Shown here piece by piece: positions 1,048-30,015 of a stretch of 32,108 bases of DNA. Within the stretch, counting starts at the first letter, position 1; each line of letters opens with the position of its first letter. The translations under genes and the position numbers were made by a program. The notes beneath the pieces are model-generated. The model saw only the letters and a program-made list of their open reading frames with translations. It ran no database searches and was not told the DNA's origin. The stretch is from Bdellovibrio sp. (GTDB lineage Bacteria; Bdellovibrionota; UBA1018), in assembly GCA_016213345.1 (NCBI GenBank), contig JACRAO010000075.1, positions 1 to 32,108 of the forward strand. Direction: 5' to 3'.

Positions 1048-2253
1048 TTGCCAATTCGTGAAGTTTTGATTTTAGCTTTTGAGTCACTTTACGCCAATAA
1101 ACTTCGTGCAAGTCTTACGATGTTGGGCATGATTATTGGAGTTGGAGCTGTTGTACTATTGGTATCTATAGGAAACGGCGCAAGAAATTATATTACTAAA
1201 CAGTTCGAAGGTTTGGGAACAAATCTTATTGTTGTTCAGCCAGGAAAAACAGATAAGAAAATGTCTTTTGGGCCGCCAGTAGGAAATTCAAAAGAAAAGC
1301 TCACACTTGCAGACGTTGACGCACTCGAAAAACAAAGTGCTTATTTGGATGCTGTTACTGGTATTTTGTTTGGAGCAGGTACGGTAAAAACGCTTGATCG
1401 CTCAAACAACGTCAATATTCTTGGCACTAATGACAAATTTGTAAAAATTTTTAATATTATAGTCACGCAAGGTCAGTTTTTTGCTACTGAAGAAGAGCAT
1501 GGCCGTAGGGTTACGGTATTGGGAGGTCATCTGGCGGAGAGTCTATTTGGGGAGCAAAACCCTGTTGGGCAAATGGTAAAAATTAATGATAGTGAGCATC
1601 GGGTTATTGGTGTTATTAGAAAGGAGGGCACGAAGCTTGGTTTCAATATGGACGATGTGGCGTTTGTGCCCACAAAGACAGCTATGAAAATTTTCAATGA
1701 TGATAAACTTTTTGGTATTCGAGCTCGTGCAAAATCAAAAATTAGCATGGATGATGCAATAGAGGAAATAAGAGATATTTTAAAAGGTCGTCACAATGGT
1801 GAAGAAGACTTTACAATCATGAACCAGTATTCGATGTTAGAGGCGCTGAACACTATATTAGGAATGATGACTTATGTGCTTGCCGGGATTGGTATGATTT
1901 CGATGGTAGTTGGTGGAATTGGGATTATGAATATTATGCTTGTGTCGGTAACTGAACGCACACGAGAAATTGGAATTCGTAGAGCAGTAGGGGCAAGAAA
2001 AAGAGATATTTTGAAACAATTTTTAACAGAAGCAATTGCACTGTCGCTTATTGGTGGAGGACTAGGATTATTTGGTTCGGTTTCTCTGACTTATGTAGCT
2101 TATGGTTTTTTGAGAAGTTTTGATATGAGAGCACCGGCGTGGATTTTTCTTCCGGCATTTTTAATTTCCGTACTAACTGGAGTTTTATTTGGGGTATGGC
2201 CTGCCAAAAAGGCGGCTGCTCTAGAAACTATAGACGCATTGAGGTATGAGTAA
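1048..2253 (+). CDS. ABC transporter permease, MacB-periplasmic-core/FtsX family
   Basis: TTG start preceded by GGAGG. N-terminal TM helix, large periplasmic domain and C-terminal FtsX-like 3-TM bundle (TERTREIGIRRAVGARKRDILKQFLTEA motif). Confidence 0.88.
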   Translation: MPIREVLILAFESLYANKLRASLTMLGMIIGVGAVVLLVSIGNGARNYITKQFEGLGTNLIVVQPGKTDKKMSFGPPVGNSKEKLTLADVDALEKQSAYLDAVTGILFGAGTVKTLDRSNNVNILGTNDKFVKIFNIIVTQGQFFATEEEHGRRVTVLGGHLAESLFGEQNPVGQMVKINDSEHRVIGVIRKEGTKLGFNMDDVAFVPTKTAMKIFNDDKLFGIRARAKSKISMDDAIEEIRDILKGRHNGEEDFTIMNQYSMLEALNTILGMMTYVLAGIGMISMVVGGIGIMNIMLVSVTERTREIGIRRAVGARKRDILKQFLTEAIALSLIGGGLGLFGSVSLTYVAYGFLRSFDMRAPAWIFLPAFLISVLTGVLFGVWPAKKAAALETIDALRYE

Positions 2254-2258
2254 AACTA

Positions 2259-3029
2259 ATGGATTTTGTATCTAATTTTTTGAACAGTTTATTGAGTTTA
2301 GAGCCTGCGCAAAGCCATATTGGGCATTATTTACTTGCTGTCATTGTCACTTATGCTGGTGGAGTGCTCTCAAGTCTTACGCCTTGCGTTTATCCAATGA
2401 TCCCAATTACTGTGAGTGTAGTGGGAGGGATATCGGGTCATTCTCGTAGGTCTTGGAAGGAAGTTCTCTTTCGTATCATAGCGTATATGATAGGGATGAC
2501 ACTGGTTTATTCTTTTTTAGGAGTGGCAGCCGGCTTGACAGGTAAAATTTTTGGGTCTTTTACTAATACCTCTGGGTGGTATTTATTTTTAGGAATAATT
2601 TTGACTTTAGCTTCTCTAATGATGCTCGAAGTTATTAGGTTTGATCCAAGTCAGTTTATTCATAAATTAAAAAGATCTCATACCAAGCAGCATCATTTGG
2701 CAAACCCTAAAGAAGTTACACATCTTGGGGCATTTTTTTTGGGTATTTCGTCAGGTTTTATAGCTACACCTTGTACTACGCCAGCTTTGACCTCGGTGCT
2801 GGCTTTTATTGCACAAACGCAGTCTGTTGGTGTGGGATTACTGCTTATGTTTTCTTTTTCACTGGGATTAAGTACAATTTTGCTCCTGATTGGACTTTTT
2901 ACGGGTGCGTTACAAATTTTGCCAAAATCTGGGAAATGGCTAGAAATGGTAAAATTAACAAGTGGATTGATTTTACTCGCTTTTGCCGGGTATTTGATTT
3001 ATCGATCAGGACAGCTATCTGGAGTGTAA
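2259..3029 (+). CDS. ccdA: Cytochrome c biogenesis / thiol:disulfide electron transporter, CcdA/DsbD family
   Basis: Polytopic membrane protein with the two hallmark Cys-Pro motifs in TM helices (LTPCVYPMIP and ATPCTTPAL). Confidence 0.8.
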   Translation: MDFVSNFLNSLLSLEPAQSHIGHYLLAVIVTYAGGVLSSLTPCVYPMIPITVSVVGGISGHSRRSWKEVLFRIIAYMIGMTLVYSFLGVAAGLTGKIFGSFTNTSGWYLFLGIILTLASLMMLEVIRFDPSQFIHKLKRSHTKQHHLANPKEVTHLGAFFLGISSGFIATPCTTPALTSVLAFIAQTQSVGVGLLLMFSFSLGLSTILLLIGLFTGALQILPKSGKWLEMVKLTSGLILLAFAGYLIYRSGQLSGV

Positions 3030-3034
3030 AAAAC

Positions 3035-4228
3035 ATGTCGCACACTATTAACACAACTAAGAACACAACCAAGAATGTAACGACTAATCCAAACCTAAAG
3101 CTTTATTCTTTATTAATTTTAACTCTCACAGGATTTGTGATTTCTTTTCTCCTTTCAAAACACTTTTATGAAATAAGAAGTGGCTTTGCGTTTTTCAAAT
3201 CTTTTTGCAATATTAATTTTCAATGGAATTGTGATGCTGTAGCATTGAGTCGATACGCTGAAACCTTTTTTGGCATTCCGCTTTCGAACATTATAGCAGG
3301 TTGGTTTTTAAGTTTTTTTGTCATTATACTCTTTGCGTTCAATCGCGATTGGTTTTATGAAACTATCAAAGCAGCTTTTGTTTTTTCTGGGGTTGGTGTT
3401 ATTTTTTCGATTTTTTATCTTGTCATAATGGTTTTTGTTTTAAAAACTTTCTGTGTTTTATGTGTCATTGTTGAGGGTATTAATATTTTATCATTGATGT
3501 TGGTTTTTTTGCTTAAACCTTCTTTGAAAAATCCAGATTTTGCTAAGTGGAAAACATTTGGTATTTCGACCTTAATCATAATGTCTCTGTCTTTATTATT
3601 TTTAAATAACCTAAAACCGGAGTCATTACCCGCTTCTGTTGTTAATGACACTATTGATTCGATTTTGAGTGCTGCACCGGTTTCTGTAGGTGAAGGGAAA
3701 AATCCATTAATATTTGGTTCCAGTGAAGCGCCAATTACAATTGTAGAGTTTAGTGATTTTCAGTGTCCTCACTGTAAACATGGAGCAATTCTTATGAATA
3801 CATTGCTCACTCGTTTTCACAACAAGTTACGTGTTGTGTTTAGAAATTTTCCATTAGATCCTTCTTGTAATCGCAGTATGCAAGGTGGGGGTGGGCATGC
3901 TGTTGCTTGTGAAGCAGCGAAAATAGTGATTTGCGCAAAAGCACAAGGAAAGTTTAAGGAAGTTTACGAATTATTTTTTGATAACCAAGCAAAGCTAGAA
4001 CTTGTTGGGCCATTAAAGTTGGTAAAGCTGGCCAAAAATTTAGAAATTGATGAACAAAAACTATTACAATGCATTAATGCTGAAGACACTCAAAAACAAT
4101 TGTCTTGGGACATAGAGGAGGGAATGCGATTAGGTATTCAGTCCACACCGACTTTTTTTATTAATGGCAGAAAAGTAGAAGGTGCTTTACCAATGGTAAT
4201 TTGGGAAAAAGTTATTGAGCAACTTTAA
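3035..4228 (+). CDS. VKOR (vitamin K epoxide reductase)-DsbA/thioredoxin fusion protein
   Basis: I prefer the ATG at 3035 (same frame as the 2771 ORF) because it removes the overlap with ccdA. N-terminal 4-5 TM domain carries the loop Cys pair (CNINFQWNC) and a membrane CVLC. The C-terminal thioredoxin fold has FSDFQCPHCK plus the cis-Pro region STPTFFING. Confidence 0.8.
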   Translation: MSHTINTTKNTTKNVTTNPNLKLYSLLILTLTGFVISFLLSKHFYEIRSGFAFFKSFCNINFQWNCDAVALSRYAETFFGIPLSNIIAGWFLSFFVIILFAFNRDWFYETIKAAFVFSGVGVIFSIFYLVIMVFVLKTFCVLCVIVEGINILSLMLVFLLKPSLKNPDFAKWKTFGISTLIIMSLSLLFLNNLKPESLPASVVNDTIDSILSAAPVSVGEGKNPLIFGSSEAPITIVEFSDFQCPHCKHGAILMNTLLTRFHNKLRVVFRNFPLDPSCNRSMQGGGGHAVACEAAKIVICAKAQGKFKEVYELFFDNQAKLELVGPLKLVKLAKNLEIDEQKLLQCINAEDTQKQLSWDIEEGMRLGIQSTPTFFINGRKVEGALPMVIWEKVIEQL

Positions 4229-4616
4229 GTTGTTTAGCGTATCCTGTCTTAAAAATAACATGATCCGCTAAAAACAGCACAATTTTGGGTGCCCGGTATG
4301 TAATAGGCAACAACAAGTCGGATCCCTTGTTTTTTTAACCTTTCCATAAAGAAAAGGTCTCCCAAATAAATTGAAACCTGTAAAAACTTATCCAAAGAAA
4401 AATGGAAATAATAGACGTTTCTTATATAAAAGATTGTGCAAGAGAACAGTTTGCAAGTGTAGTGGTGATTGTCGCTTGAGCTCCATTTTGTAAGGTTAGA
4501 GCTTCCACTTTTGTCACATTCGAGCGCTTTGAGTTGATAAAAGATGAAAGTCCGAATTTAGCTATATAAAAGGACTGATGATTGTGCTAAAATCAGACAT
4601 AAGGAGGCCAGTAAAT

Positions 4617-4946
4617 ATGGCTGAAAATCAAATTAGACCCCCGGTACAAACAGCAACTGACATTATTCCTATTGCTAAGTTCAAAGCACAGGCTTCAACC
4701 TATCTTAATCATATTCGCGAAAATAATCATCCACTAGTTATTACACAACATGGAAAAGCAGCTGCCGTTCTGCTCTCTCCGGAAGAATTCGATCGGCTCC
4801 AGAAAATCATATACGAGCGTTACTTTTTAGGTGTGCTCGCTCAAGGACAGACTGATGCACTTCAGGGTCGGACTATTCCACATGAAGAAGTGAAACAACA
4901 ACTTCACCAACGCTATTCCCAGCAAAAAAGGGCCGCTCATAAATGA
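4617..4946 (+). CDS. Type II antitoxin, Phd/YefM family
   Basis: AAGGAGG lies 9 nt upstream of the ATG at 4617. The sequence IPIAKFKAQASTYLNHIRENNHPLVITQHGKAAAVLLSPEEFDRLQ is the classic Phd/YefM N-terminal fold. The stop overlaps the toxin start (ATGA). Confidence 0.8.
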   Translation: MAENQIRPPVQTATDIIPIAKFKAQASTYLNHIRENNHPLVITQHGKAAAVLLSPEEFDRLQKIIYERYFLGVLAQGQTDALQGRTIPHEEVKQQLHQRYSQQKRAAHK

Positions 4947-5248
4947 AAATTGTTTGGAGTCTTGGCGCTCAAACAAACTTACAAGAAATTGGGGATTATA
5001 TTGCACAAGACTCTCCTGATCGTGCCTTCTCTTTTCTTTTTGAGCTCATTGATTACGCTGAAAAAGTATTGATGTTTCCAAGAGCTGGCCGCAAGGTACC
5101 GGAAACAGATCTTGATGAAATACGTGAAGTGATCCATAAAAACTACCGAGTAGTGTACTTAATGCAGAAACACCAAGTTCTCATTCTATCTGTCCAGGAA
5201 GGTCACAAAATGCTAAAAGTCTCTGAAATTTGTGATACAGACATCTAG
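4943..5248 (+). CDS. Type II toxin, RelE/ParE family
   Basis: 101 aa, with a 4-nt overlap onto the antitoxin. The pattern W...A..DL.EI.DYIA.DSP..A..F...I......L..FP..GR...E......RE.......Y...Y is ParE-like. Confidence 0.78.
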   Translation: MKIVWSLGAQTNLQEIGDYIAQDSPDRAFSFLFELIDYAEKVLMFPRAGRKVPETDLDEIREVIHKNYRVVYLMQKHQVLILSVQEGHKMLKVSEICDTDI

Positions 5249-6751: not shown

Positions 6752-7231
6752 ATGGTCAAAACTGGTAAATCACCGAATCATCCCCGTTCAAATGAGAGTG
6801 AGAGTAAACCAATACAACGTCCAAAACAGGTTGACTTGGCAGGTGCTGAATTACTTAAAGACGAGGCAAGTGCAGTTTATCAATTGCGATGTGCAGTGTG
6901 TATCAAAGACATAAATGAAATGAATGATAAAGTTTTGGAACTTTTAGGGACGTTACGACATGAGCGTGATGACAATAAGAAATCAGAGAAAACAGAAGAG
7001 TTGAAACGAATACTTGATCTTATATTGGTATGTAAAAAACGACTTGAGTGTACGGATACAAAAGCATGTGCTCTTTCTACGGATAAACCATGTCGCATGC
7101 AAGACCTAATGGAAGTGCACAAAGAATACGAAGATGTCAAAGAAGAATCTAGCGCCATACAAGACAAAATTAATGTATTTACTGATTTAAATACACCAGA
7201 AGTCAAGTCAGATCAGGCAGAAGTCAAGTAA
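6752..7231 (+). CDS. Hypothetical Cys-containing coiled-coil protein (likely the C-terminal part of the 6117 gene)
   Basis: The ORF-track start is 6752, but this frame is open and protein-like from 6545 (…FLTTLEDVTSEAQDVVNNILSRLETIIDDTKQDLISLRDSLQTAYSDIRE-M…) with no start codon. This suggests fusion to 6117-6608 by a 1-nt frame change. Confidence 0.6.
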   Translation: MVKTGKSPNHPRSNESESKPIQRPKQVDLAGAELLKDEASAVYQLRCAVCIKDINEMNDKVLELLGTLRHERDDNKKSEKTEELKRILDLILVCKKRLECTDTKACALSTDKPCRMQDLMEVHKEYEDVKEESSAIQDKINVFTDLNTPEVKSDQAEVK

Positions 7232-11355: not shown

Positions 11356-12132
11356 ATGCTTATTGACACTCACTGCCACTTGGATTCAGACTTTTCGCCT
11401 AAAACAATTCCTGACTTGCTCAGAGAGGCCACTCTCGCTGATGTTTCTATTATGATTGCAGTTGCTACAGAGCTCGATTCGGTAAAAAAAGTATCTGAAA
11501 TCTCTAGTCAATATGAAAACGTTTTTTGCACAGTTGGTATTCATCCTCATGAAGCGAAAAAATTTGATATTTCAGATGTATTGATCTTAAAAGAAGCAGC
11601 CATGAATCCAAAGTGCAAAGCTATTGGTGAAATTGGTTTGGATTATCATTACAAATTTTCAACTCCTGAAGAACAAAAATATACGTTGGAGCAACAACTA
11701 AACTTAGCAGCAAAACTTGGCTTGCCTGTGGTGATCCATTCTAGAGAGGCAGAAGAGGATCTGGAAATATCATTAAGTCGTTATGCAAAACGAGTGAAAA
11801 CAGGAGCAATTCCAGGCGTTCTTCACTGTTTTACTGGCACAAAGGAATTTGGCCTGAAATGTTTAGATTTAGGATTTTATGTTTCTTTTTCGGGAATTTT
11901 AACTTTCAAGAATGCAGATAGCATTCGAGAGTGTGCCCGAGTTTTTCCCTTGGATCGCATAGTGATCGAGACGGATGCTCCTTTTTTGGCACCAGTTCCT
12001 TGGCGTGGTAAAAAATGTGAGCCAAGCTACCTTAAGCTGACTGCTCAAAAGCTAGCCGAAATTAGAGGTATGTCTTTTGACGAAGTAGCGCAAGCGACAA
12101 CAGAAAATGCAAAAAGACTTTTTAATATATAA
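11356..12132 (+). CDS. TatD-family metal-dependent hydrolase (DNase)
   Basis: I prefer the ATG at 11356, which gives MLIDTHCHLD (the canonical TatD N-terminus). Further motifs: GIHPHEA, GEIGLDYHY, VIHSREA, HCFTG and ETDAPFLAP. Confidence 0.88.
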   Translation: MLIDTHCHLDSDFSPKTIPDLLREATLADVSIMIAVATELDSVKKVSEISSQYENVFCTVGIHPHEAKKFDISDVLILKEAAMNPKCKAIGEIGLDYHYKFSTPEEQKYTLEQQLNLAAKLGLPVVIHSREAEEDLEISLSRYAKRVKTGAIPGVLHCFTGTKEFGLKCLDLGFYVSFSGILTFKNADSIRECARVFPLDRIVIETDAPFLAPVPWRGKKCEPSYLKLTAQKLAEIRGMSFDEVAQATTENAKRLFNI

Positions 12133-12141
12133 AGTATTTCC

Positions 12142-13422
12142 CTACGCAGCCTCAACCAGCATTACAACACCTAGCCCGCTGCCGGCGCAAACAGAGACAA
12201 GGGCTAGTTTTTTCCCTCTGACTTTTAATTCATGCAAAGCTTGTAAGATCAGCCTCACTCCTGTAGCTCCAAACGGATGTCCTAATGGAATGCTGCCTCC
12301 GTTTACATTAAATTTTGACATATCTACTTGGCCAATTGGTCGATCCAATCCTAATTTATCTTTAGCAAATTCTTTTGATTCGATCGCTCGGATTGACGAT
12401 AAAACCTGAGCCGCAAAAGCTTCGTGCATTTCGATTAAATCAATATCTTCCCAACTAACGCCAGCTTGTTTTAACATGCGTGGAATTGCATATACTGGAC
12501 CTATCAGTAAAGGTTCCTTTTTTATGTCAATAGCAGCGGCTGCGTAACCTCTTAAAAAACCCAATGGTTTCATTTTGTATTCTTCTGCTTTTTTTTCACT
12601 CATCATTAGGATGGCACTCGCTCCATCTGTTAGCGGGCTCGCATTTCCCGCTGTGATTGTTCCATCTTTATAAAAAACAGGTTTCAGCATTGCCAGTTTT
12701 TCTAGTGTTGTATCAGCTCGAATATCCGTATCTCGATCAACCACTTTGCCATCAGGAGTACCGATAGTAACTACATGCGATTTATAAAAACCACGTTCCC
12801 AGGCATTATGAGCCTTAATATGGCTATCTAATGCATATTTGTCTTGTATTTCGCGCGAAACTCCAAAAACTCTAGCCATCAAATCCCCAGATTGACCCAT
12901 CGTAAGACCAGTTGTGGGTTCTTTGATTCCCGGAGCATGTGGCATTAGGTGTTTAGGTTTAAATTCGGTTAATTTGGATAGTTTCTGGGCCGTAGTTCTG
13001 GATTTCATTAGATCCTGAAAAAAATCAGTTGCGTCTTGGCTGAAAAGTGCACGAATAGAACTAATTGACTCGGCTCCTCCTGCCATCCCAACCTCTATTT
13101 GTCCGGATTGAATTTTTGCAGCAATTGCACTTACGCACTCAGTAGAAGAGGCACAATAACGATTTACAGTGGTGCAAGGAATTTCAGCGGGTAACCCTGA
13201 ATCAAACAAAGCCTCTCTAGCCACATTTGTTCCTTCTGGAGGGGGGCACACTATGCCGAAATACAGTTCTTGGATTAATTTTGGGTCGAAATCACTTCTA
13301 GCTATTGTCTCTCTAAGAACGAAGCCTCCTAGTGTAGAGGCTGGCATTTTTTGAAACAAGGCCCTAGACCTGACAAATGGAGTCCTTACTCCATTAACAA
13401 ATACAACCCGATTTTGGTTCAT
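12142..13422 (-). CDS. Acetyl-CoA C-acyltransferase (thiolase)
   Basis: Active-site Cys in VNRYCASS, GNASPLTDGASA, and the C-terminal NVNGGSIPLGHPFGATG and CAGSGLG motifs. Confidence 0.9.
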   Translation of the reverse strand: MNQNRVVFVNGVRTPFVRSRALFQKMPASTLGGFVLRETIARSDFDPKLIQELYFGIVCPPPEGTNVAREALFDSGLPAEIPCTTVNRYCASSTECVSAIAAKIQSGQIEVGMAGGAESISSIRALFSQDATDFFQDLMKSRTTAQKLSKLTEFKPKHLMPHAPGIKEPTTGLTMGQSGDLMARVFGVSREIQDKYALDSHIKAHNAWERGFYKSHVVTIGTPDGKVVDRDTDIRADTTLEKLAMLKPVFYKDGTITAGNASPLTDGASAILMMSEKKAEEYKMKPLGFLRGYAAAAIDIKKEPLLIGPVYAIPRMLKQAGVSWEDIDLIEMHEAFAAQVLSSIRAIESKEFAKDKLGLDRPIGQVDMSKFNVNGGSIPLGHPFGATGVRLILQALHELKVRGKKLALVSVCAGSGLGVVMLVEAA

Positions 13423-15174: not shown

Positions 15175-16515
15175 CTAAGGGGTAATGGCTTGCACCACAT
15201 TTGGTGACGCGGACCATTTAGGTGTAACACAGTTGCCGAGACCATAGGTCAGACGTTTCACAAAAGTTCCATCAATATTCATAACATAGATGTTTTGAGT
15301 GCCAGTTCGATTGGAACTGAAAATTACAAAATTTCCATCTGGACTAAAATAAGGATCCTCGTTGTTACCTTGATTTTTAGTGAGTCTTTCTATATGCGTA
15401 CCATCAGGGTTCATGATGAAAATGTCAAAAATGTTATCTATCCATCCTGCAAAAGCAATTTTGTTATTTTGAGGTGACCAATTTGGAGTTGCATTGTATC
15501 TACCAGCATAAGTTAAGCGTTGCAACCGACTTCCATCTAGCGCAATACTGTAAATCATAGGCATCCCGGTTCTTGAAGAAACAAAAATCAGCGTCTTACC
15601 GTCTGGACTCCAAGATGGATCCACATCTACACCAAAAGATGAAGTAAGGCGAGTCGCGTTTAATGTAGTCAAATCAAGTGAAAAAACCTCTGGATTTCCC
15701 AAAAAACTCATTGTTATAGCTATTTTTTTGCCATCTGGTGAATATGCCGCGCCACTGTTAATGCCTTTGCGGTTAGAGAGCAATCGAATTGTACTTGTTG
15801 GAAAATCATACTCATAGAGATCAATGTTTTTGATGTTATTTTTTCGTTTTGTAAAAAGAGAATAAGCAATTTTTGTTCCATCTGGGCTCCATGCAGGAGC
15901 AATAGCAATAGAGCGGTGTTATGTAATTTGCTTAATGCCGCCTCCATCAAAGTCCATAATATAAATTTCTTTTTTTCCCGTCAGATCACAACTCATTGCA
16001 ATTTTAGTTAAGAAAATGCCTGGTTTTCCAGTTAAGAAAAACATAATGTCATTGGCAAAACTGTGAGCCAAAGTTTTGGCATCTGACAAAGCTGCCAAGT
16101 ATTTTTTTGCAAAAATTTGTTTTTGACCCAAAACATCGTAAAGATGCCCTTGAAATGTTAGCGTATTTCCATCTAGATTTAGTTCTGTTTTAATCAGAAA
16201 CTCAGCTCCGACGCTTGACCAATCTGAAAACTTAAAGCTATCTAAAACAATCCCGGTACTTTTTGGATCTTCGATAAAAGCAGCAGGAGAAAGAAAGCGA
16301 AACAGGTCCATAAAGTCTAAATCTAGATTTATAGTTTTATGTATTGTTTGTTTAGCTTGGACAATAGAAACATTGCTTTGGAGGGCTAAATTGCTCTTGA
16401 TTTCTGGCAGAGCAACGATAGATCTTTTTGTTCTTGCTGTGCCCACCGCAATGTATAACTTTTCGTCCGCATACGATGCAGTTGATATGAACATGAGTGC
16501 AGCTAATATACTCAT
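15175..16515 (-). pseudogene. tolB: TolB (Tol-Pal periplasmic beta-propeller protein) interrupted by a single in-frame TAA
   Basis: One continuous reading frame from ATG 16515 (signal peptide MSILAALMFISTASYA) to the stop at 15175. The N-terminal TolB domain is followed by repeated WSPDG/FSPDG propeller blades. The frame reads ...[33 protein letters not shown]... with TAA at complement(15919-15921). Confidence 0.8.
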
Positions 16516-16540
16516 TTTATAGAATGTGCACATACGGATA

Positions 16541-17323
16541 TTATAAAGGAAACCCAAGCAAAACACCATTGAGTAAGAGTTCTTTTGCAATTTCTCTGGG
16601 CGGTATCGGATAAGGTTGGCTAGATTGTAGTGTCTTAATTACCATCTCATCAAAGGTTTGATTGTTTGATACCTTAACAAACTGAAAATGCCTTAAATAC
16701 CCTTTTTGATCTATATGAATTTGCACTTGTGCAGATAAATCTTGACGGCTCAACCACACGGGCAGCGCCCAATTTTGCTGTAGGTGGTCTTTTAAAGAGT
16801 CATAATAGCTGCCTTCTATGTTCTCTTTGGCATCTTGCGAAATGCTAGAGCCTTTTGAAAGTATATTTCCCTTAAGTACGACTTGAGTTTCATTAGATTC
16901 AGGAGAAACTTTCTCTAAGGCCTTGATTCGAGAAAGTGCATTTTTCATTTTAGATTGTCTATTTTTGACTGGATTTGTAGCCTTAGGTTTAAGCACCATA
17001 TTATCCGATCTCTCGATGGTTTTTGCTTTCCTGTACTGAGTATTTTTTAATTGTTTAGCTGCTTCTTCGGCCTTTTCTAAAGCCCGACTGAGTTCCTGTG
17101 AGGGTTTGTTTATGGCTAGGTCTTTTTTTAAATAATCTGGCAGACCGACTAAATCCACTTTTAAAGTAGGTACAAAAGGAACGATTTTTGAAGGGAAGCT
17201 AAAACCTCTAAACCATAGCATAGTAAATAACGCGACATGACAGAGTAAAGACCATTTTACTGCTACTTTAAAATTATTTGAAGTAGTCAGTACTTGTGGT
17301 GCTCTAAAAGGTGGAACTACCAT
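16541..17323 (-). CDS. tolA: TolA/TonB-like energy-transducing protein
   Basis: N-terminal TM anchor, a charged Lys/Glu-rich linker and a C-terminal TonB_C/TolA_C-like domain (YYDSLKDHLQQNWALPVW...VQIHIDQKGYL). Positioned between tolR and tolB. Confidence 0.7.
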   Translation of the reverse strand: MVVPPFRAPQVLTTSNNFKVAVKWSLLCHVALFTMLWFRGFSFPSKIVPFVPTLKVDLVGLPDYLKKDLAINKPSQELSRALEKAEEAAKQLKNTQYRKAKTIERSDNMVLKPKATNPVKNRQSKMKNALSRIKALEKVSPESNETQVVLKGNILSKGSSISQDAKENIEGSYYDSLKDHLQQNWALPVWLSRQDLSAQVQIHIDQKGYLRHFQFVKVSNNQTFDEMVIKTLQSSQPYPIPPREIAKELLLNGVLLGFPL

Positions 17324-23013: not shown

Positions 23014-24600
23014 ATGTCTGATACACAAACAATGCATTATTTGAATCAAACCACAGGGATTTGGTCATGGCTAAAGACATTGGATCACAAACGAATTGGT
23101 CTAATGTATTTATTTACTGTTTTAATTTTCTTTTTAGTTGGCGGAGTTTTTGCTCTTCTCATACGTTGGAATCTTTTCTATCCAAACCACGGATTTGTAG
23201 AAGCCAATACGTATAATAAATTTTTTACATATCACGGCGCGATCATGGTGTTTTTGGTTATTATTCCTGCAATTCCTGCCACCTTAGGCAATTTCATGCT
23301 CCCATTGTTAGTCGGAGCAAAAGATGTTGCATTTCCACGTTTAAATTTATTTTCATATTACTTGTTTGTTTTAGGTGCTCTGATAGCTTTGGCTTCACTA
23401 TTTTTTGGTGGAGCAGATACGGGTTGGACATTTTATACGCCGTATTCCATTCGTGCCAGTAGCAGTATGATTTTTGTTGTTTTGGGAGCTTTTGTTGCTG
23501 GGTTTTCGTCTATTTTAACTGCACTAAATTTTATTATTACAATTCACAAACTTAGAGCTCCTGGATTAACACTCGGAAGGTTGCCACTTTTTTGTTGGGC
23601 AGTTTATGCAACTAGTATTATCCAAATTTTAGCAACTCCTGTGCTAGCCATTACACTTTTACTGCTTGTGTTTGAACAAGTGTTTAAAATTGGTATTTTT
23701 GATCCAAAATTAGGAGGAGATGCAGTTTTGTTCCAGCATTTTTTTTGGTTTTACTCACATCCTGCTGTGTATATTATGATTCTTCCGGCTATGGGTGTGA
23801 TTAGTGAAGTAGTGCCTGTGTTTTCAAGAAAGCCTATTTTTGGTTACAAGGCTATTGCCATGTCATCGTTTGGTATTGCACTTGTTGCTTTTATTGTTTG
23901 GGGGCATCATCTGTTTGTAAGTGGACAATCAGAACTTGCAAATTTTATTTTTTCTCTTCTTACCATGTCTGTAGCTGTACCAACTGGAGTAAAGGTTTTT
24001 AGTTGGTTAGCGACAATGTACAAGGGGTCAATTCATTTTAATGCTCCATTTTTATATGTGCTTGGATTTTTAGAACTCTTTTCGATAGGTGGCTTGACTG
24101 GTGTATTTTTAGCTACCTTGGCTCTAGACGTACATTTAACAGATACTTATTTTGTAGTGGCACATTTTCATTTTGTTATGGTGGGTGGGGCAATTATGGG
24201 TTTTTTTTCAGGATTGCACTATTGGTATCCAAAAATATGTGGAAAAATGTATTCTGAAAAATCAGCTCTTATTGCATTTGTTTTAATTATTATTGGCTTT
24301 AATGTTACTTTTTTCCCACAATTTATTTTAGGCGCTCAAGGGATGCCTAGAAGGTATTGGACTTATTTGCCAGAGTTTACATTGCTCAATCAAATTTCAA
24401 CTGTTGGATCATGGATGTTAGGTATAGGTTTTGTTTATGTTGTTTATTATTTACTTAGAGATTTAAAGAAAGGAGAAAAAGCTACTGCAAATCCTTGGCG
24501 TGCTTTGACGTTGGAGTGGCAAACTACGTCACCACCACCGACTGAAAATTTTGTAAAAACGCCAGTGGTTACGGAGTGGCCCTATGAGTATCGTGAGTAG
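23014..24600 (+). CDS. ctaD: Cytochrome c oxidase subunit I
   Basis: Twelve TM helices with canonical motifs: FFWFYSHPAVYIMILP, WGHHLF (CuB ligands) and VVAHFHFVM (heme ligands). Confidence 0.95.
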   Translation: MSDTQTMHYLNQTTGIWSWLKTLDHKRIGLMYLFTVLIFFLVGGVFALLIRWNLFYPNHGFVEANTYNKFFTYHGAIMVFLVIIPAIPATLGNFMLPLLVGAKDVAFPRLNLFSYYLFVLGALIALASLFFGGADTGWTFYTPYSIRASSSMIFVVLGAFVAGFSSILTALNFIITIHKLRAPGLTLGRLPLFCWAVYATSIIQILATPVLAITLLLLVFEQVFKIGIFDPKLGGDAVLFQHFFWFYSHPAVYIMILPAMGVISEVVPVFSRKPIFGYKAIAMSSFGIALVAFIVWGHHLFVSGQSELANFIFSLLTMSVAVPTGVKVFSWLATMYKGSIHFNAPFLYVLGFLELFSIGGLTGVFLATLALDVHLTDTYFVVAHFHFVMVGGAIMGFFSGLHYWYPKICGKMYSEKSALIAFVLIIIGFNVTFFPQFILGAQGMPRRYWTYLPEFTLLNQISTVGSWMLGIGFVYVVYYLLRDLKKGEKATANPWRALTLEWQTTSPPPTENFVKTPVVTEWPYEYRE

Positions 24601-24602
24601 GG

Positions 24603-24767
24603 CACTGGAACATTAATTTCTTCTTTTTTTAAAAAAATTTATCTCACCGGCCGCCATCCTGGCTCTCCGGGGGCCCCCTTGGCCATCCATGGCCGAATCG
24701 CATCCAGCTCCCCCGAGGCCGGTAAGATAAATTTTTTCTAAAAAAAGAAGAAATTAATGTTCCAGTG
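24603..24767. repeat. 165-bp near-perfect inverted repeat (50/51-nt AT-rich arms, 64-nt GC-rich core); candidate palindromic mobile element or structured RNA
   Basis: Left arm 24603-24652 and the reverse complement of 24717-24767 differ by one 1-nt indel and one mismatch. The core 24653-24716 is 45/64 G+C by my count and contains GGGGGCCCCC (24669-24678) and GGCCATCCATGGCC (24681-24694). Confidence 0.9.
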
Positions 24768-24805
24768 TAGTAGTCGCCTTATGAAGTAGTAAAGGATAAT
24801 ACATT

Positions 24806-25480
24806 ATGGCAGAGACGCAAGTTGTAGATCATCAGAAGCAACAACAACAACCTCATCATCATCATGCACATCATTTCATAAGTGCTGAAGCGGAATTTGA
24901 AGCCTCAAAACAGGGAATGTGGGTTTTTTTAGTGACTGAAGTGCTTATGTTTGGAGGGTTGTTTACTGCTTACGCAGTGTTTCGTGGGCTTTATCCTGAT
25001 ATGTTTTATGAAGCTCATAAATTTTTGAATGTTAAACTTGGATGTTTAAATACTGTGATTTTGATTACAAGCAGCCTCACTATGGTATTAGCTGTAAGTG
25101 CTTCTCAGAGAGGAGAAAAAAATAAAACAGCTTGGTTTTTAGCGTGCACACTTATGTTAGCGGCTGGGTTTTTGATTGTAAAATATATCGAATATTCTGC
25201 AAAATTTCACCACGGTCTATTGCCTGCTGGTTTTTTTCATAATGAAACAATAAAGCATGTGAAAGCACCTTTATTTTTTTCGCTTTATTTTATAATGACT
25301 GGACTTCATGGATTGCATGTCCTGATAGGTATGGGGTTAATTTTGTGGATTTTTACTAGAGCTTTAAAGGGTCAGTTTAGTTCTGGTTATTATACTCCAG
25401 TAGAGCTTGTAGGATTTTATTGGCATTTTGTGGATTTAGTTTGGATTTATCTTTTTCCACTTCTTTATTTAGTAGGATGA
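24806..25480 (+). CDS. ctaE: Cytochrome c oxidase subunit III
   Basis: His-rich N-terminus (HHHHAHHF), then 5 TM helices with GLHGLHVLIG and YWHFVDLVWI motifs. Confidence 0.9.
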   Translation: MAETQVVDHQKQQQQPHHHHAHHFISAEAEFEASKQGMWVFLVTEVLMFGGLFTAYAVFRGLYPDMFYEAHKFLNVKLGCLNTVILITSSLTMVLAVSASQRGEKNKTAWFLACTLMLAAGFLIVKYIEYSAKFHHGLLPAGFFHNETIKHVKAPLFFSLYFIMTGLHGLHVLIGMGLILWIFTRALKGQFSSGYYTPVELVGFYWHFVDLVWIYLFPLLYLVG

Positions 25481-26890: not shown

Positions 26891-28150
26891 ATGGCAGATA
26901 TTTTTGCGAAGTGTCACAGTTATGAAGATGTCAAAAGGTTACAGTCTTTAGGCTTGTATCCTTTTTTTAGACCAATAGAGAAGACTAGTGGCTCTTGTGT
27001 TACGGCACACGGAAAGCTTTGCGTGATGATAGGCTCCAATAATTATTTAGGGCTCACACATCACCCAAGAGTAAAAGAAGCAGCTAAACGAGCCTTGGAT
27101 CATTTTGGTACTGGTTGTACAGGATCCAGATTTCTGAATGGAAATCTGGTATTACATGAGGAACTTGAGCATAATCTTGCCAGGTTTTTAAAGAAAGAAA
27201 GTTGCCTAGTGTTCAGCACGGGTTTCTTGGCAAACCAGGGTACACTATCCACTCTAGTGGGTAGAGCAGATGTACTTTATTGTGATCGCGAAAACCATGC
27301 TTCTATTATCGAAGGAACTCGCATTGCTTTAGGTGACACTATAAAATTTCGTCACAACGACATGAAGGATTTAGAAAGAGTACTTGAGCAAACAAGACAT
27401 AAATACGAAGGTGCTCTGATTGTAGCTGATGGTGTGTTTTCTATGTCTGGGGATATTTTAAATCTCCCCAAGGTGGTTGAATTAGCAAAAAAATATACCT
27501 GCCGTGTTTACGTTGATGATGCCCACTCTCTTGGTGTTCTAGGTCCAATGGGACAAGGAACTGAGGCTCATTTTAATCATATTAGCCAGGCTGATGTGGT
27601 TATGGGGACTTTTTCGAAATCTTTTGCTTCGATTGGTGGATTTGTAGCCGGACCTGCTCATGTGATTAATTATGTGAAACACAAATGCAGGCCTTTTATT
27701 TTTAGTGCGGCTATGCCACCGGCAGCAGCAGCAACTGTCTTAGAGTGTTTAAAAATTGTTCAAGAAGAACCAGAGCATTTACGAAATTTATGGACAAATG
27801 TCCGCAAAATGAGAAAAGAGTTAAATTTGATTGGCTATAATACTTTAAACAGCCGAACTCCTATTGTTCCACTTTTTATAGGTGATGATTTAACTGCGTT
27901 TTCGTTTACACAAAAGCTTTATGAACGGGGAGTATTTGCAACTCCCGTTGCAAAACCTGCTGTTCCCGAAGGATTTGCTCTTATACGCACTAGTTATATG
28001 GCAACACATACTCAAAGGGATCTTGACTATGTGCTCGAAGTTTTAGAAAGTTTAGGCAAACAGTATGGACTTTTAGGGCAAGTGGTGCACCCTAATTTTG
28101 AACCCGCCCATTTAAGGAAGGAATCTTATGTATCAGCTCAAGCGCGTTGA
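26891..28150 (+). CDS. PLP-dependent alpha-oxoamine synthase, serine palmitoyltransferase-like (BioF/KBL/SPT family)
   Basis: SNNYLGL, GSRFLNG, FSTGFLAN, DDAHSLG and the PLP-lysine motif GTFSKSFASIGGF. At 419 aa, its N-terminal LGLYPFFRPIE segment resembles bacterial SPTs. Substrate cannot be assigned by eye. Confidence 0.8.
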   Translation: MADIFAKCHSYEDVKRLQSLGLYPFFRPIEKTSGSCVTAHGKLCVMIGSNNYLGLTHHPRVKEAAKRALDHFGTGCTGSRFLNGNLVLHEELEHNLARFLKKESCLVFSTGFLANQGTLSTLVGRADVLYCDRENHASIIEGTRIALGDTIKFRHNDMKDLERVLEQTRHKYEGALIVADGVFSMSGDILNLPKVVELAKKYTCRVYVDDAHSLGVLGPMGQGTEAHFNHISQADVVMGTFSKSFASIGGFVAGPAHVINYVKHKCRPFIFSAAMPPAAAATVLECLKIVQEEPEHLRNLWTNVRKMRKELNLIGYNTLNSRTPIVPLFIGDDLTAFSFTQKLYERGVFATPVAKPAVPEGFALIRTSYMATHTQRDLDYVLEVLESLGKQYGLLGQVVHPNFEPAHLRKESYVSAQAR

Positions 28151-29619: not shown

Positions 29620-30015
29620 GTGATTTATATTGATTCGTGTATACCGATGTATCTTGTTGGAGCTCAACATCGTAACAAAAGTCGGGTTATTGAGATGATT
29701 TCATCTCTTTTATCTGCCCGTGAGACACTTGTTACAAGTGCAGAGGCTTTTCAGGAAATTTTGCATCGTTACAAAGCAATTCATAATCCCAAGCACATGA
29801 AGATCGCCTACGAAGCTCTTGATGAGCTGGCATTTTCAGTTGAGCCTATATGCAAAGAAGACACGGATCGTGCACTCACGCTGTGTTTTCAACTTCCTTC
29901 GCTTTCGTCTCGTGATTGTCTACATCTGGCAGTGATGAATCGCATTGGTTGCCGACGGATTTGGACTTACGACGCTAATTTTGATGGTATACCAAAAATC
30001 GACCGGGTGTATTGA
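29620..30015 (+). CDS. vapC: PIN-domain toxin (VapC family)
   Basis: GTG start 6 nt after AAGGAG. Acidic residues sit at PIN positions (IYIDS..., ...FQEILHRY..., ...SSRDCLHLAV..., ...TYDANFDGI). Confidence 0.75.
   Translation: MIYIDSCIPMYLVGAQHRNKSRVIEMISSLLSARETLVTSAEAFQEILHRYKAIHNPKHMKIAYEALDELAFSVEPICKEDTDRALTLCFQLPSLSSRDCLHLAVMNRIGCRRIWTYDANFDGIPKIDRVY

Follow-up and report, generated by a model that had tools for sequence, protein, structure and literature searches.

Long palindromic repeats that are co-transcribed with their neighboring genes can influence the messages that carry them; RNase III cleaves Correia elements, and ERIC elements alter mRNA decay (PMC10969869, PMC3184786). The structured RNA motif TwoAYGGAY comprises two hairpins with AYGGAY loops, closed by a helix, P1, described as 'often very large (e.g., 24 base pairs)' (Weinberg et al. 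2010, PMC2864571), and it has been proposed to be a CsrA-binding small RNA (sRNA) (PMC4333381). Here we describe a 165-nt palindrome located between ctaD and ctaE, the genes of cytochrome c oxidase subunits I and III, in a 32,108-nucleotide stretch of Bdellovibrio sp. DNA (GenBank assembly GCA_016213345.1, contig JACRAO010000075.1), the whole of which is called the window below. We hold with moderate confidence that this element belongs to a family of palindromic repeats, dispersed and constrained in structure, in Bacteriovoracaceae-like Bdellovibrionota, that it was secondarily inserted at this site, and that its local effect would come from a stable duplex in the cox mRNA. Judged by the sequences compared, the family is small and previously undescribed, and is best regarded as a phylum-specific variant: an intergenic palindromic repeat whose core of GGA hairpins resembles TwoAYGGAY.

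An earlier note on this DNA had given the dimensions of the element, and its figures proved exact: arms of 50 and 51 nt, which differ by one 1-nt indel and one mismatch, enclose a 64-nt core in which 45 positions are G or C, and the first arm begins 2 nt after the stop codon of ctaD. The G+C content of the core (70%) compares with 30% in the arms and 36.5% in the window. The element holds the only 60-nt stretch of the window above 62% G+C (73%, about 5 standard deviations over the mean) and is the longest inverted repeat of the window. Its single arm mismatch reads C.A on the plus strand and G.U on the minus strand. Both core palindromes that the note had named are present, namely GGGGGCCCCC, contained in the inner helix P2, from 24669 and GGCCATCCATGGCC from 24681. 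On the minus strand the core displays three mini-hairpins with GGA loops (motifs CAGGAUG, CAUGGAUG and CUGGAUG) and a fourth GGA in a linker (CGGAGAG); by hand count on the sequence, the loop motifs begin 17 and 29 nt apart. The plus strand, and hence the cox mRNA, bears the complementary CAUCC loops. The note had remarked neither on these recurring CAUCC/GGAUG loops nor on the likeness to TwoAYGGAY and CsrA sites. The expectation of a very stable hairpin in the operon transcript was borne out by folding: positions 24595-24775 give a predicted RNA energy of -95.3 kcal/mol against -43.1 +/- 3.8 kcal/mol in 200 shuffles (z = -13.9, with 0/200 shuffles reaching the observed value). This predicted hairpin forms independently of its flanks and leaves free the Shine-Dalgarno sequence of ctaE, which begins 38 nt beyond the end of the element. 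The single-stranded DNA of the element folds comparably (z = -14.6), and the core alone reaches -41.1 kcal/mol on the minus strand and -38.7 kcal/mol on the plus strand. Open reading frames (ORFs) within the element encode only 20-25 amino acids. As the note had also stated, the 32-kb window contains no second copy, and no short target-site duplication lies directly at the ends of the element.

Comparison with related genomes demonstrates that the palindrome is a secondary addition to the oxidase operon. The best CtaD matches belong to metagenome-assembled genomes (MAGs) of Bacteriovoracaceae/Bdellovibrionia, with 75-78% identity in GTDB and at most 84% identity among 5.8 billion proteins. The exact protein is absent from the collection searched, which points, with these identities, to a Bacteriovoracaceae-like source that lacks a close sequenced relative. 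The ctaD-ctaE spacer of the window measures 205 nt, or about 40 nt once the 165-nt element is subtracted. The corresponding spacers of the closest relatives are 15 nt (locus L098, CtaD 84%) and 17 nt (locus L101, CtaD 81%) and contain just a Shine-Dalgarno sequence. In 80 GTDB loci, one of which yielded no ctaE, the two genes overlap or are separated by at most 35 nt with a single exception, not counting one spacer estimated at about 74 nt; in five further relatives they overlap or lie 9-23 nt apart. Because the site is empty in the two closest and about 95 other relatives, the element is, on this comparison, an insertion into a normally very short ctaD-ctaE junction, in keeping with the inserted MITE- or REP-like palindromic element (MITE, miniature inverted-repeat transposable element) that the note had proposed.

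An inverted-repeat scan was applied to all fetched loci (1.57 Mb), every one of which is centred on ctaD. Palindromes of the same architecture were recovered from two other Bacteriovoracaceae-like MAGs: two copies, L027a and L027b, at locus L027 (CAZCBS01; CtaD 75%) and one at L101/L102 (L101 from GCA_023250795.1). The two L027 copies lie within 7 kb of each other and, together with a partial copy, within 15 kb. The P1 helices of all four elements are near-perfect and span 50 bp in the window copy, 46 bp in the L101 copy and 36-38 bp in those of L027, and the arm sequences are not alignable between genomes. Every core carries small C-G-closed hairpins with A(N)GGA(U/A) loops, and the elements share a layout in which P1 surrounds P2, which holds hairpin B, followed by hairpin C; hairpin A is an extra of the window copy. 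A loose scan for hairpins with a duplex-energy cut-off returned 331 GGA matches against 107-661 for controls and, being too unspecific, was replaced by a strict motif test, in which pairs of C-A(N)GGA(A/T)-G hairpins no more than 60 nt apart were sought on both strands of 1.55 Mb. Four such pairs were found, and all four fall inside the long palindromes (window, L027 twice and L101). Twelve control trinucleotides yielded no genuine pair, the lone match for GCC consisting of two overlapping matches in a GCCAG repeat, while single strict hairpins occur about once per 40-90 kb of strand. The elements other than that of the window stand after the subunit IV gene, after ctaB and next to mazEF (a MazE/PemK pair in L101). 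About 80 kb was added as L103-L111, and a scan of L103-L107 revealed no new family member. The coordinates and hairpins of the elements are collected in Table 1.

Table 1. Coordinates and composition of the window element, its flanking features and the related elements.
Feature	Position	Strand	Description
Whole element	24603-24767		165 nt; palindrome between ctaD and ctaE
Left arm of outer helix P1	24603-24652		50 nt, 30% G+C, inner end CCGGCC
Right arm of P1	24717-24767		51 nt, one extra C (bulge)
Core	24653-24716	-	64 nt, 45/64 G+C (70%)
Hairpin C	24653-24663	-	GCC-AGGAU-GGC (CAGGAUG motif); plus strand reads GCC-AUCCU-GGC
Inner helix P2	24668-24715		CGGGGG (24668-24673) pairs with CCCCCG (24710-24715); encloses hairpins A and B
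Hairpin B	24681-24694	-	GGCC-AUGGAU-GGCC, an AYGGAY loop
Hairpin A	24700-24708	-	GC-UGGAU-GC; weak (2-bp stem)
ctaD (cytochrome c oxidase subunit I)	23014-24600	+	Upstream neighbor; stop TAG 24598-24600
AGTGGCCCTATGAGTA	24575-24590	+	3'-terminal ctaD coding sequence, codes ..WPYE.. (WPYEY); left copy of a possible imperfect direct repeat
AGTCGCCTTATGAAGTA	24772-24788	+	Possible degenerate second copy of the ctaD 3' end; translates SPYEV
ctaE (subunit III)	24806-25480	+	Downstream neighbor; own Shine-Dalgarno AAAGGA at 24791-24796
L027a element	6802-6931	-	GGC-AGGAU-GCC, CUGCGAC-AGGAA-GUCGCAG
L027b element	13191-13317	+	GGC-AGGAU-GCC, GUGAC-AGGAU-GUCAC
L101 element (L101/L102)	2206-2346	+	AUAGC-AGGAA-GCUAU, CUC-AUGGAU-GAG

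Searches with arm and core words gave no true match, and the related elements were recognised by their anatomy. An arm 21-mer had 0 matches in GTDB genomes, while an arm 20-mer had 17 in JGI metagenomes. The 17 JGI contigs (L081-L097, 29-36% G+C) hold exactly the first 20 nt of the arm and nothing else of the element, and they probably reflect either shared sequence of an abundant unrelated organism or chance. At L027, a solo GGA hairpin at 6983-7013 (CGAC-AGGAT-GTCG plus CAGCGAGG) repeats part of L027a incompletely and in inverted orientation, and L027b is nested within a further perfect inverted repeat of 13 bp (CAGAAGTGCGTCA at 13164-13176 and TGACGCACTTCTG at 13332-13344), giving a mosaic arrangement. 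Nearly perfect palindromes of 63-197 nt without GGA-loop hairpins were also seen in other Bdellovibrionales loci (L011:3955-4019 and 12662-12724; L006:15185-15269; L043:18354-18550; L066:15984-16172), and long palindromic intergenic elements seem to be common in the phylum.

The two L027 copies allow the pairing of the arms to be evaluated. They are homologous, with 87 of 141 positions identical and an identical core 17-mer, TTCAGGCAGGATGCCGT. In a MAFFT alignment with an RNAalifold structure, all 42 predicted pairs are kept between them; both partners differ in 14 pairs and a single partner in 2, and no pair is broken. None of 500 column shuffles reached these values and slid controls gave 0-2. 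A MAFFT alignment of all four elements mis-aligned the arms, and the covariation count is therefore limited to the L027 pair. The earlier note had read the near-identity of the arms as a sign of recent acquisition. That argument is not supported, since the arms in L027 diverged to about 55-60% identity while their pairing was kept, so that arm likeness cannot serve to date the insertion; in the window, too, near-perfect arms are then a family property kept by constraint or concerted evolution. Arm complementarity itself is open to two readings, selection on an RNA or single-stranded DNA helix and the binding of one protein by both ends. The note's second argument, foreign base composition, is not supported either, because the G+C-rich core is a structured module that is recognisably related across the four elements, with the same layout of A(N)GGA hairpins.

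The right flank may carry a further trace of the insertion event. A segment downstream of the element (Table 1) matches the 3' end of ctaD at 14 identical positions of a 17-column alignment (p about 0.02-0.03 by shuffling) and matches the ctaD end of L098 at 13 of 14 positions (p about 0.004). At two synonymous sites it agrees better with L098 than with ctaD of the window itself. Exact repeats between the ctaD end and the right flank do not exceed 5 nt. This match may be a decayed long target duplication, although it is only suggestive. If the duplicate is real, its decay, including the synonymous-site differences in the functional copy, indicates that the insertion is not recent.

In the Rfam comparison proposed in the earlier note, nothing in the window reached a gathering threshold, and a sub-threshold resemblance to TwoAYGGAY (RF01731) was detected. 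This model is the window's top Rfam match by bit score (24.7 bits, minus strand), two miRNA-precursor models having lower E-values, and it is the best match of L027a (34.1 bits, E = 6e-4, on the GGA strand). At lax thresholds, unrelated miRNA-precursor models score 40-50 bits on long hairpins, which demonstrates that helix length by itself inflates such scores. A covariance model, R1, was built from the two L027 copies. With default filters it found only its own two sequences; with the filters off it scored the minus strand of the window at 24.2 bits (E = 0.001) against 16.2 bits for the plus strand, matched L101 weakly, and aligned hairpin C of the window with the L027 hairpin GAC-AGGAW-GUC. 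The closing P1 of the elements is large (36-50 bp), as in TwoAYGGAY. The loops read AUGGAU, AGGAU and UGGAU on the minus strand of the window, AUGGAU and AGGAA in L101, and AGGAU or AGGAA in L027; GGA itself is present in every loop, the Y before it often being missing.

Repeats of CAGGA(U/A/C)G in loops are the signature of CsrB, and CsrA dimers bridge sites some 10-60 nt apart, a range into which the 17-29 nt spacing observed here fits. To our knowledge, CsrA decoy RNAs are firmly established only in gamma-proteobacteria. No csrA gene is present in the 32-kb window. Experiments show the CsrA of B. bacteriovorus to be functional, and CsrAs predicted to be functional are over-represented in Bdellovibrionota (PMC13443453). 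One extension of these comparisons, which we consider rather unlikely, is that the elements are portable CsrA-decoy modules, a TwoAYGGAY-like RNA spreading as a mobile repeat in Bdellovibrionota. If so, each copy would equip its host transcript, depending on orientation, with either GGA decoy sites or CAUCC loops that resemble anti-Shine-Dalgarno sequences, and a selfish palindromic repeat would be tied to global post-transcriptional control in a bacterial predator; TwoAYGGAY itself would then be suggested to be such a repeat.

The orientation of the GGA loops bears on what the element could do at this locus. The GGA-displaying strand of the window is the minus strand, antisense to cox. In L027a it is the sense strand, in the 3' region of ctaB and upstream of a bidirectional terminator, and in L027b it is likewise sense, in the 3' region of the subunit IV gene. 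As in the window, L027a has a G.U pair only on its GGA strand; this agreement (two of two, p = 0.25 by chance) is weakly consistent with an RNA on that strand. A consensus scan from 24768 to about 25150, covering about 390 nt upstream of the element on the minus strand, found no sigma-70-like promoter, non-sigma-70 promoters lying outside the scan, and no terminator was found after the element on the same strand. Because the GGA loops are antisense and no promoter was found, the likeliest local effect is that of a stable intercistronic hairpin in the cox mRNA.

A mechanism can be proposed on this basis. P1 clamps a core that presents, on one strand, two or three small A(N)GGA(U/A) hairpins, and the element is presumably co-transcribed with cox, as no terminator was found. 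A duplex of about 50 bp could break the tight ctaD-ctaE coupling seen in relatives, after which ctaE would initiate from its own Shine-Dalgarno sequence. The duplex may further serve as an RNase III-type substrate or as a barrier to 3' exonucleases, as documented for Correia, ERIC and REP, and the ctaC-ctaD and ctaE-subunit IV halves of the message could thereby differ in stability. CsrA might bind the opposite strand; a decoy property at this locus would apply only to minus-strand transcripts and is more speculative. The locus would in this way constitute a natural experiment, in which two normally tightly coupled oxidase subunit genes have been uncoupled. If the element is simply a selfish palindrome, it represents an ordinary MITE-like insertion of modest interest.

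Several observations weigh against the interpretation of the element as a dispersed repeat with a TwoAYGGAY-like core. The TwoAYGGAY scores of 24.7 and 34.1 bits both lie under the 43-bit gathering threshold, the scores of our own model are weak, and L027b and L101 have no TwoAYGGAY match at E <= 10. The family counts four members in three genomes, with one copy in the 32-kb window. No true arm match exists in GTDB genomes or JGI metagenomes, and neither a search of IMG/VR with a core 26-mer nor a blastn search of plasmids and phages with the element gave anything meaningful. The likeness between genomes consists of architecture and a short loop motif that was first noticed in the same data. 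Orientation is mixed, the GGA strand being antisense in the window and L101 and sense, in 3' regions, in L027a and L027b. None of the four elements shows a target-site duplication, no transposase or mobilising enzyme was identified, and covarying arms are also expected if both ends must bind one transposase.

The other explanations draw on much of the same evidence. A minus-strand sRNA gene, encoding a TwoAYGGAY- or Rsm-like decoy antisense to cox that titrates CsrA dimers through three or four GGA sites while P1 shields it from nucleases, would account for the three GGA-loop hairpins and linker GGA on that strand, for the 17 and 29 nt between loop motifs, for the strand of the TwoAYGGAY resemblance, for the G.U form of the arm mismatch here and in L027a, and for the slightly better fold of the minus-strand core, and a functional CsrA is available in Bdellovibrio. 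We nevertheless judge such a gene unlikely: a sigma-70-like promoter within about 390 nt upstream and a following terminator were both lacking on that strand, the element sits inside an operon on the non-coding strand, family orientation relative to genes is inconsistent, the Rfam scores are below the gathering threshold, and the two G.U observations could well be due to chance. Distinctly unlikely is a cis-acting element dedicated to the cox mRNA, one selected here so that processing, stabilisation or attenuation adjusts the ratio of subunit I to subunit III, and not a mobile or dispersed repeat. Since about 95% of the lineages examined lack it, the closest relatives among them, it is not a conserved operon feature, elements of the same anatomy stand in unrelated contexts (after subunit IV, after ctaB and beside mazEF), and the lack of a U-tract means that it is not an intrinsic terminator. 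The cis-acting explanation does agree with the exact placement between ctaD and ctaE, the very stable fold, the maintained complementarity of the arms and the structures that two other lineages carry independently in the same spacer (L033; L109-L111). Proximity to cox does not speak for it, since all loci were centred on ctaD and this nearness is an ascertainment bias.

An element acting at the DNA level, with no part for RNA, is to our minds just as improbable as the cis-acting one. The window encodes no transposase, whether RAYT, Y1 or of another type, the loop motif corresponds to one that is well known from RNA-protein binding, and the two informative arm mismatches are G.U on one strand, as is expected, if weakly, of RNA pairing. 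Target-site duplications are lacking as in REP and IS200/IS605-type elements, the nested and partial L027 copies are reminiscent of mosaic REP clusters, single-stranded DNA folds equally well, and orientation is random relative to genes, all of which agree with a DNA-level role. The sequence GTAG cuts both ways, as it is found next to the foot of the hairpin in L101 and in the window, at 24597-24600 and again at 24767-24770 and 24770-24773, yet is absent beside the L027 copies. An inert one-off insertion or local rearrangement, coincidentally similar to the other palindromes, would explain the single copy in the window, the lack of a sequence match in five collections and the possible ctaD-end duplicate on the right flank. 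It is very unlikely in view of the strict test, in which all four paired GGA hairpins fell within long palindromes against no genuine pair in 12 controls, the common P1/P2/hairpin layout, and the weak strand-specific matches to the L027 model and TwoAYGGAY. Perfect palindromes can also come from multiple displacement amplification (MDA) or fold-back reads. An assembly or amplification artefact of this kind, a fold-back chimera, is scarcely credible here, as the arms are not copies of the flanking genes, relatives show collinear flanks, the core consists of unique sequence, and analogous elements occur in the independent assemblies of L027 (a NODE-named contig) and L101/L102 (a k141-named contig).

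Other identities were also rejected. An intrinsic terminator was dismissed because the sequence following the hairpin, UAGUAGUCGCC, has no U-tract and no terminator-like site was called. The R''/R' consensus of attC sites does not fit, the short ORFs dispose of a coding element or RPE-like in-frame insert, and a TA target duplication is inconsistent across copies.

Two other loci carry structures in the ctaD-ctaE spacer that were considered as relatives of the window element and found not to be homologous. In L033, an unrelated groundwater 'Deltaproteobacteria' MAG of 53% G+C, a palindrome of 226 nt (11590-11815, -127 kcal/mol) lies between ctaD and ctaE. The insertion (11565-11879) is bounded by an exact 13-bp direct repeat, TGAGGATGAAGAA, in which the last ctaD codons are included; the 3' end of ctaD thus seems to have received an insertion accompanied by a long target duplication. 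The same locus has 7-nt tandem repeats (GGACCAG, GGACTAC, AGGGACT) at 3050-3300, 7002-7033 and 11879-11906, which are a separate repeat family; those at 3050-3300 make the 33-nt arms of a 251-nt palindrome, and the array at 11879-11906 directly follows the ctaD-ctaE insertion. In L109 (CtaD 79%; also in L110 and L111), the 127-nt spacer (3437-3563) contains a G+C-rich hairpin of 12 bp, GGCAGCCAGGAC-UUUC-GUCUUGGCUGCU, with a weak U-run behind it, which may act as an attenuator or stabiliser between the two cistrons.

The genes surrounding the window element are those of an ordinary chromosome. Their order is ctaB and ctaA on the opposite strand, then a SCO1-like gene, ctaC (which carries a cytochrome c domain), ctaD, the element, ctaE and a fusion of subunit IV with cytochrome c; elsewhere the window encodes Tol-Pal, ABC transporter, thiolase, toxin-antitoxin and serine-palmitoyltransferase-like functions. 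No transposase, integrase, RAYT or Y1 gene was found among the window ORFs. On the minus strand, tolB appears to be split into two ORFs (15175-15783 and 15919-16590; TolB_N and PD40 beta-propeller) with about 135 nt containing stops between them, which could reflect a frameshift, a pseudogene or a sequencing error. The toxin-antitoxin genes (4578-5248 and 29620-30015) comprise a Phd/YefM-ParE pair and a PIN-domain protein. The serine-palmitoyltransferase-like gene (26891-28150) scores 489 bits against a Bacteroidetes-type model with a cut-off of 640, and it is consistent with the sphingolipid synthesis reported for Bacteriovorax.

Comparison with described palindromic repeats places the element near several families. 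ERIC/IRU, Correia (CREE/NEMIS) and MITE repeats are likewise palindromes of 100-170 bp that occupy intergenic or intra-operon spacers in either orientation, and ERIC and Correia are co-transcribed as long RNA hairpins on which RNase III or RNase E acts, changing the stability of the flanking mRNA (PMC10969869, PMC3184786). The element differs from these in lacking a TA or other short target-site duplication, any sequence similarity and a known cognate transposase, and in having arms complementary over their full length as opposed to terminal inverted repeats of 20-30 bp. With MITEs in particular it shares terminal inverted repeats, whereas neither a fixed-length target-site duplication nor a parent insertion sequence (IS) or transposase with matching ends was found; orthologous sites are empty in relatives, and copies number two plus a partial one in 15 kb at L027 and one in the window. 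REP/BIME/REPIN elements, such as that of the malE-malF spacer, are intra-operon palindromes that guard upstream mRNA from 3' exonucleases, have no target-site duplication and may form nested or mosaic arrangements. Their units are G+C-rich hairpins of 20-40 nt that have GTAG as a conserved foot and occur in genomes encoding a RAYT, whereas here GTAG is inconsistent, no RAYT is seen in the window, and the much longer helix is A+T-rich. Rickettsia palindromic elements (RPEs) are similar as palindromic repeats of about 100-150 bp in an A+T-rich genome. They are typically in frame within coding sequences and restricted to Rickettsia, whereas our element is intergenic, offers no usable ORF and shows no similarity to them.

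The core, in turn, recalls CsrA-related RNAs. The Csr/Rsm decoys (CsrB, CsrC, RsmX/Y/Z) share with it repeated GGA motifs of the CAGGA(U/A/C)G type in hairpin loops. In contrast to those families, to which it has no Rfam match, the element has 2-4 sites in a long palindrome and no promoter or terminator of its own that we could find, and it is dispersed and inserted in either orientation. Against TwoAYGGAY, which has 216 representatives and no fixed gene context, most loops here are AGGAU or AGGAA, one base shorter, and two of the four elements are unmatched; the copy in the window adds a third hairpin and an inner helix, P1 extends further (36-50 bp), and the hosts are Bdellovibrionota as opposed to Clostridia, gamma-proteobacteria and gut metagenomes. 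The shared features are a very long P1 around A(Y)GGA(Y)-loop hairpins, one window loop that is exactly AUGGAU, and a match on the GGA strand. The function of TwoAYGGAY, an orphan motif, has only been guessed at, and the same layout is found here in a different phylum, inserted, and with its helix kept by compensatory change. The elements accordingly offer short RNAs for CsrA-binding tests in Bdellovibrio-like predators, in which CsrA biology is almost unexplored.

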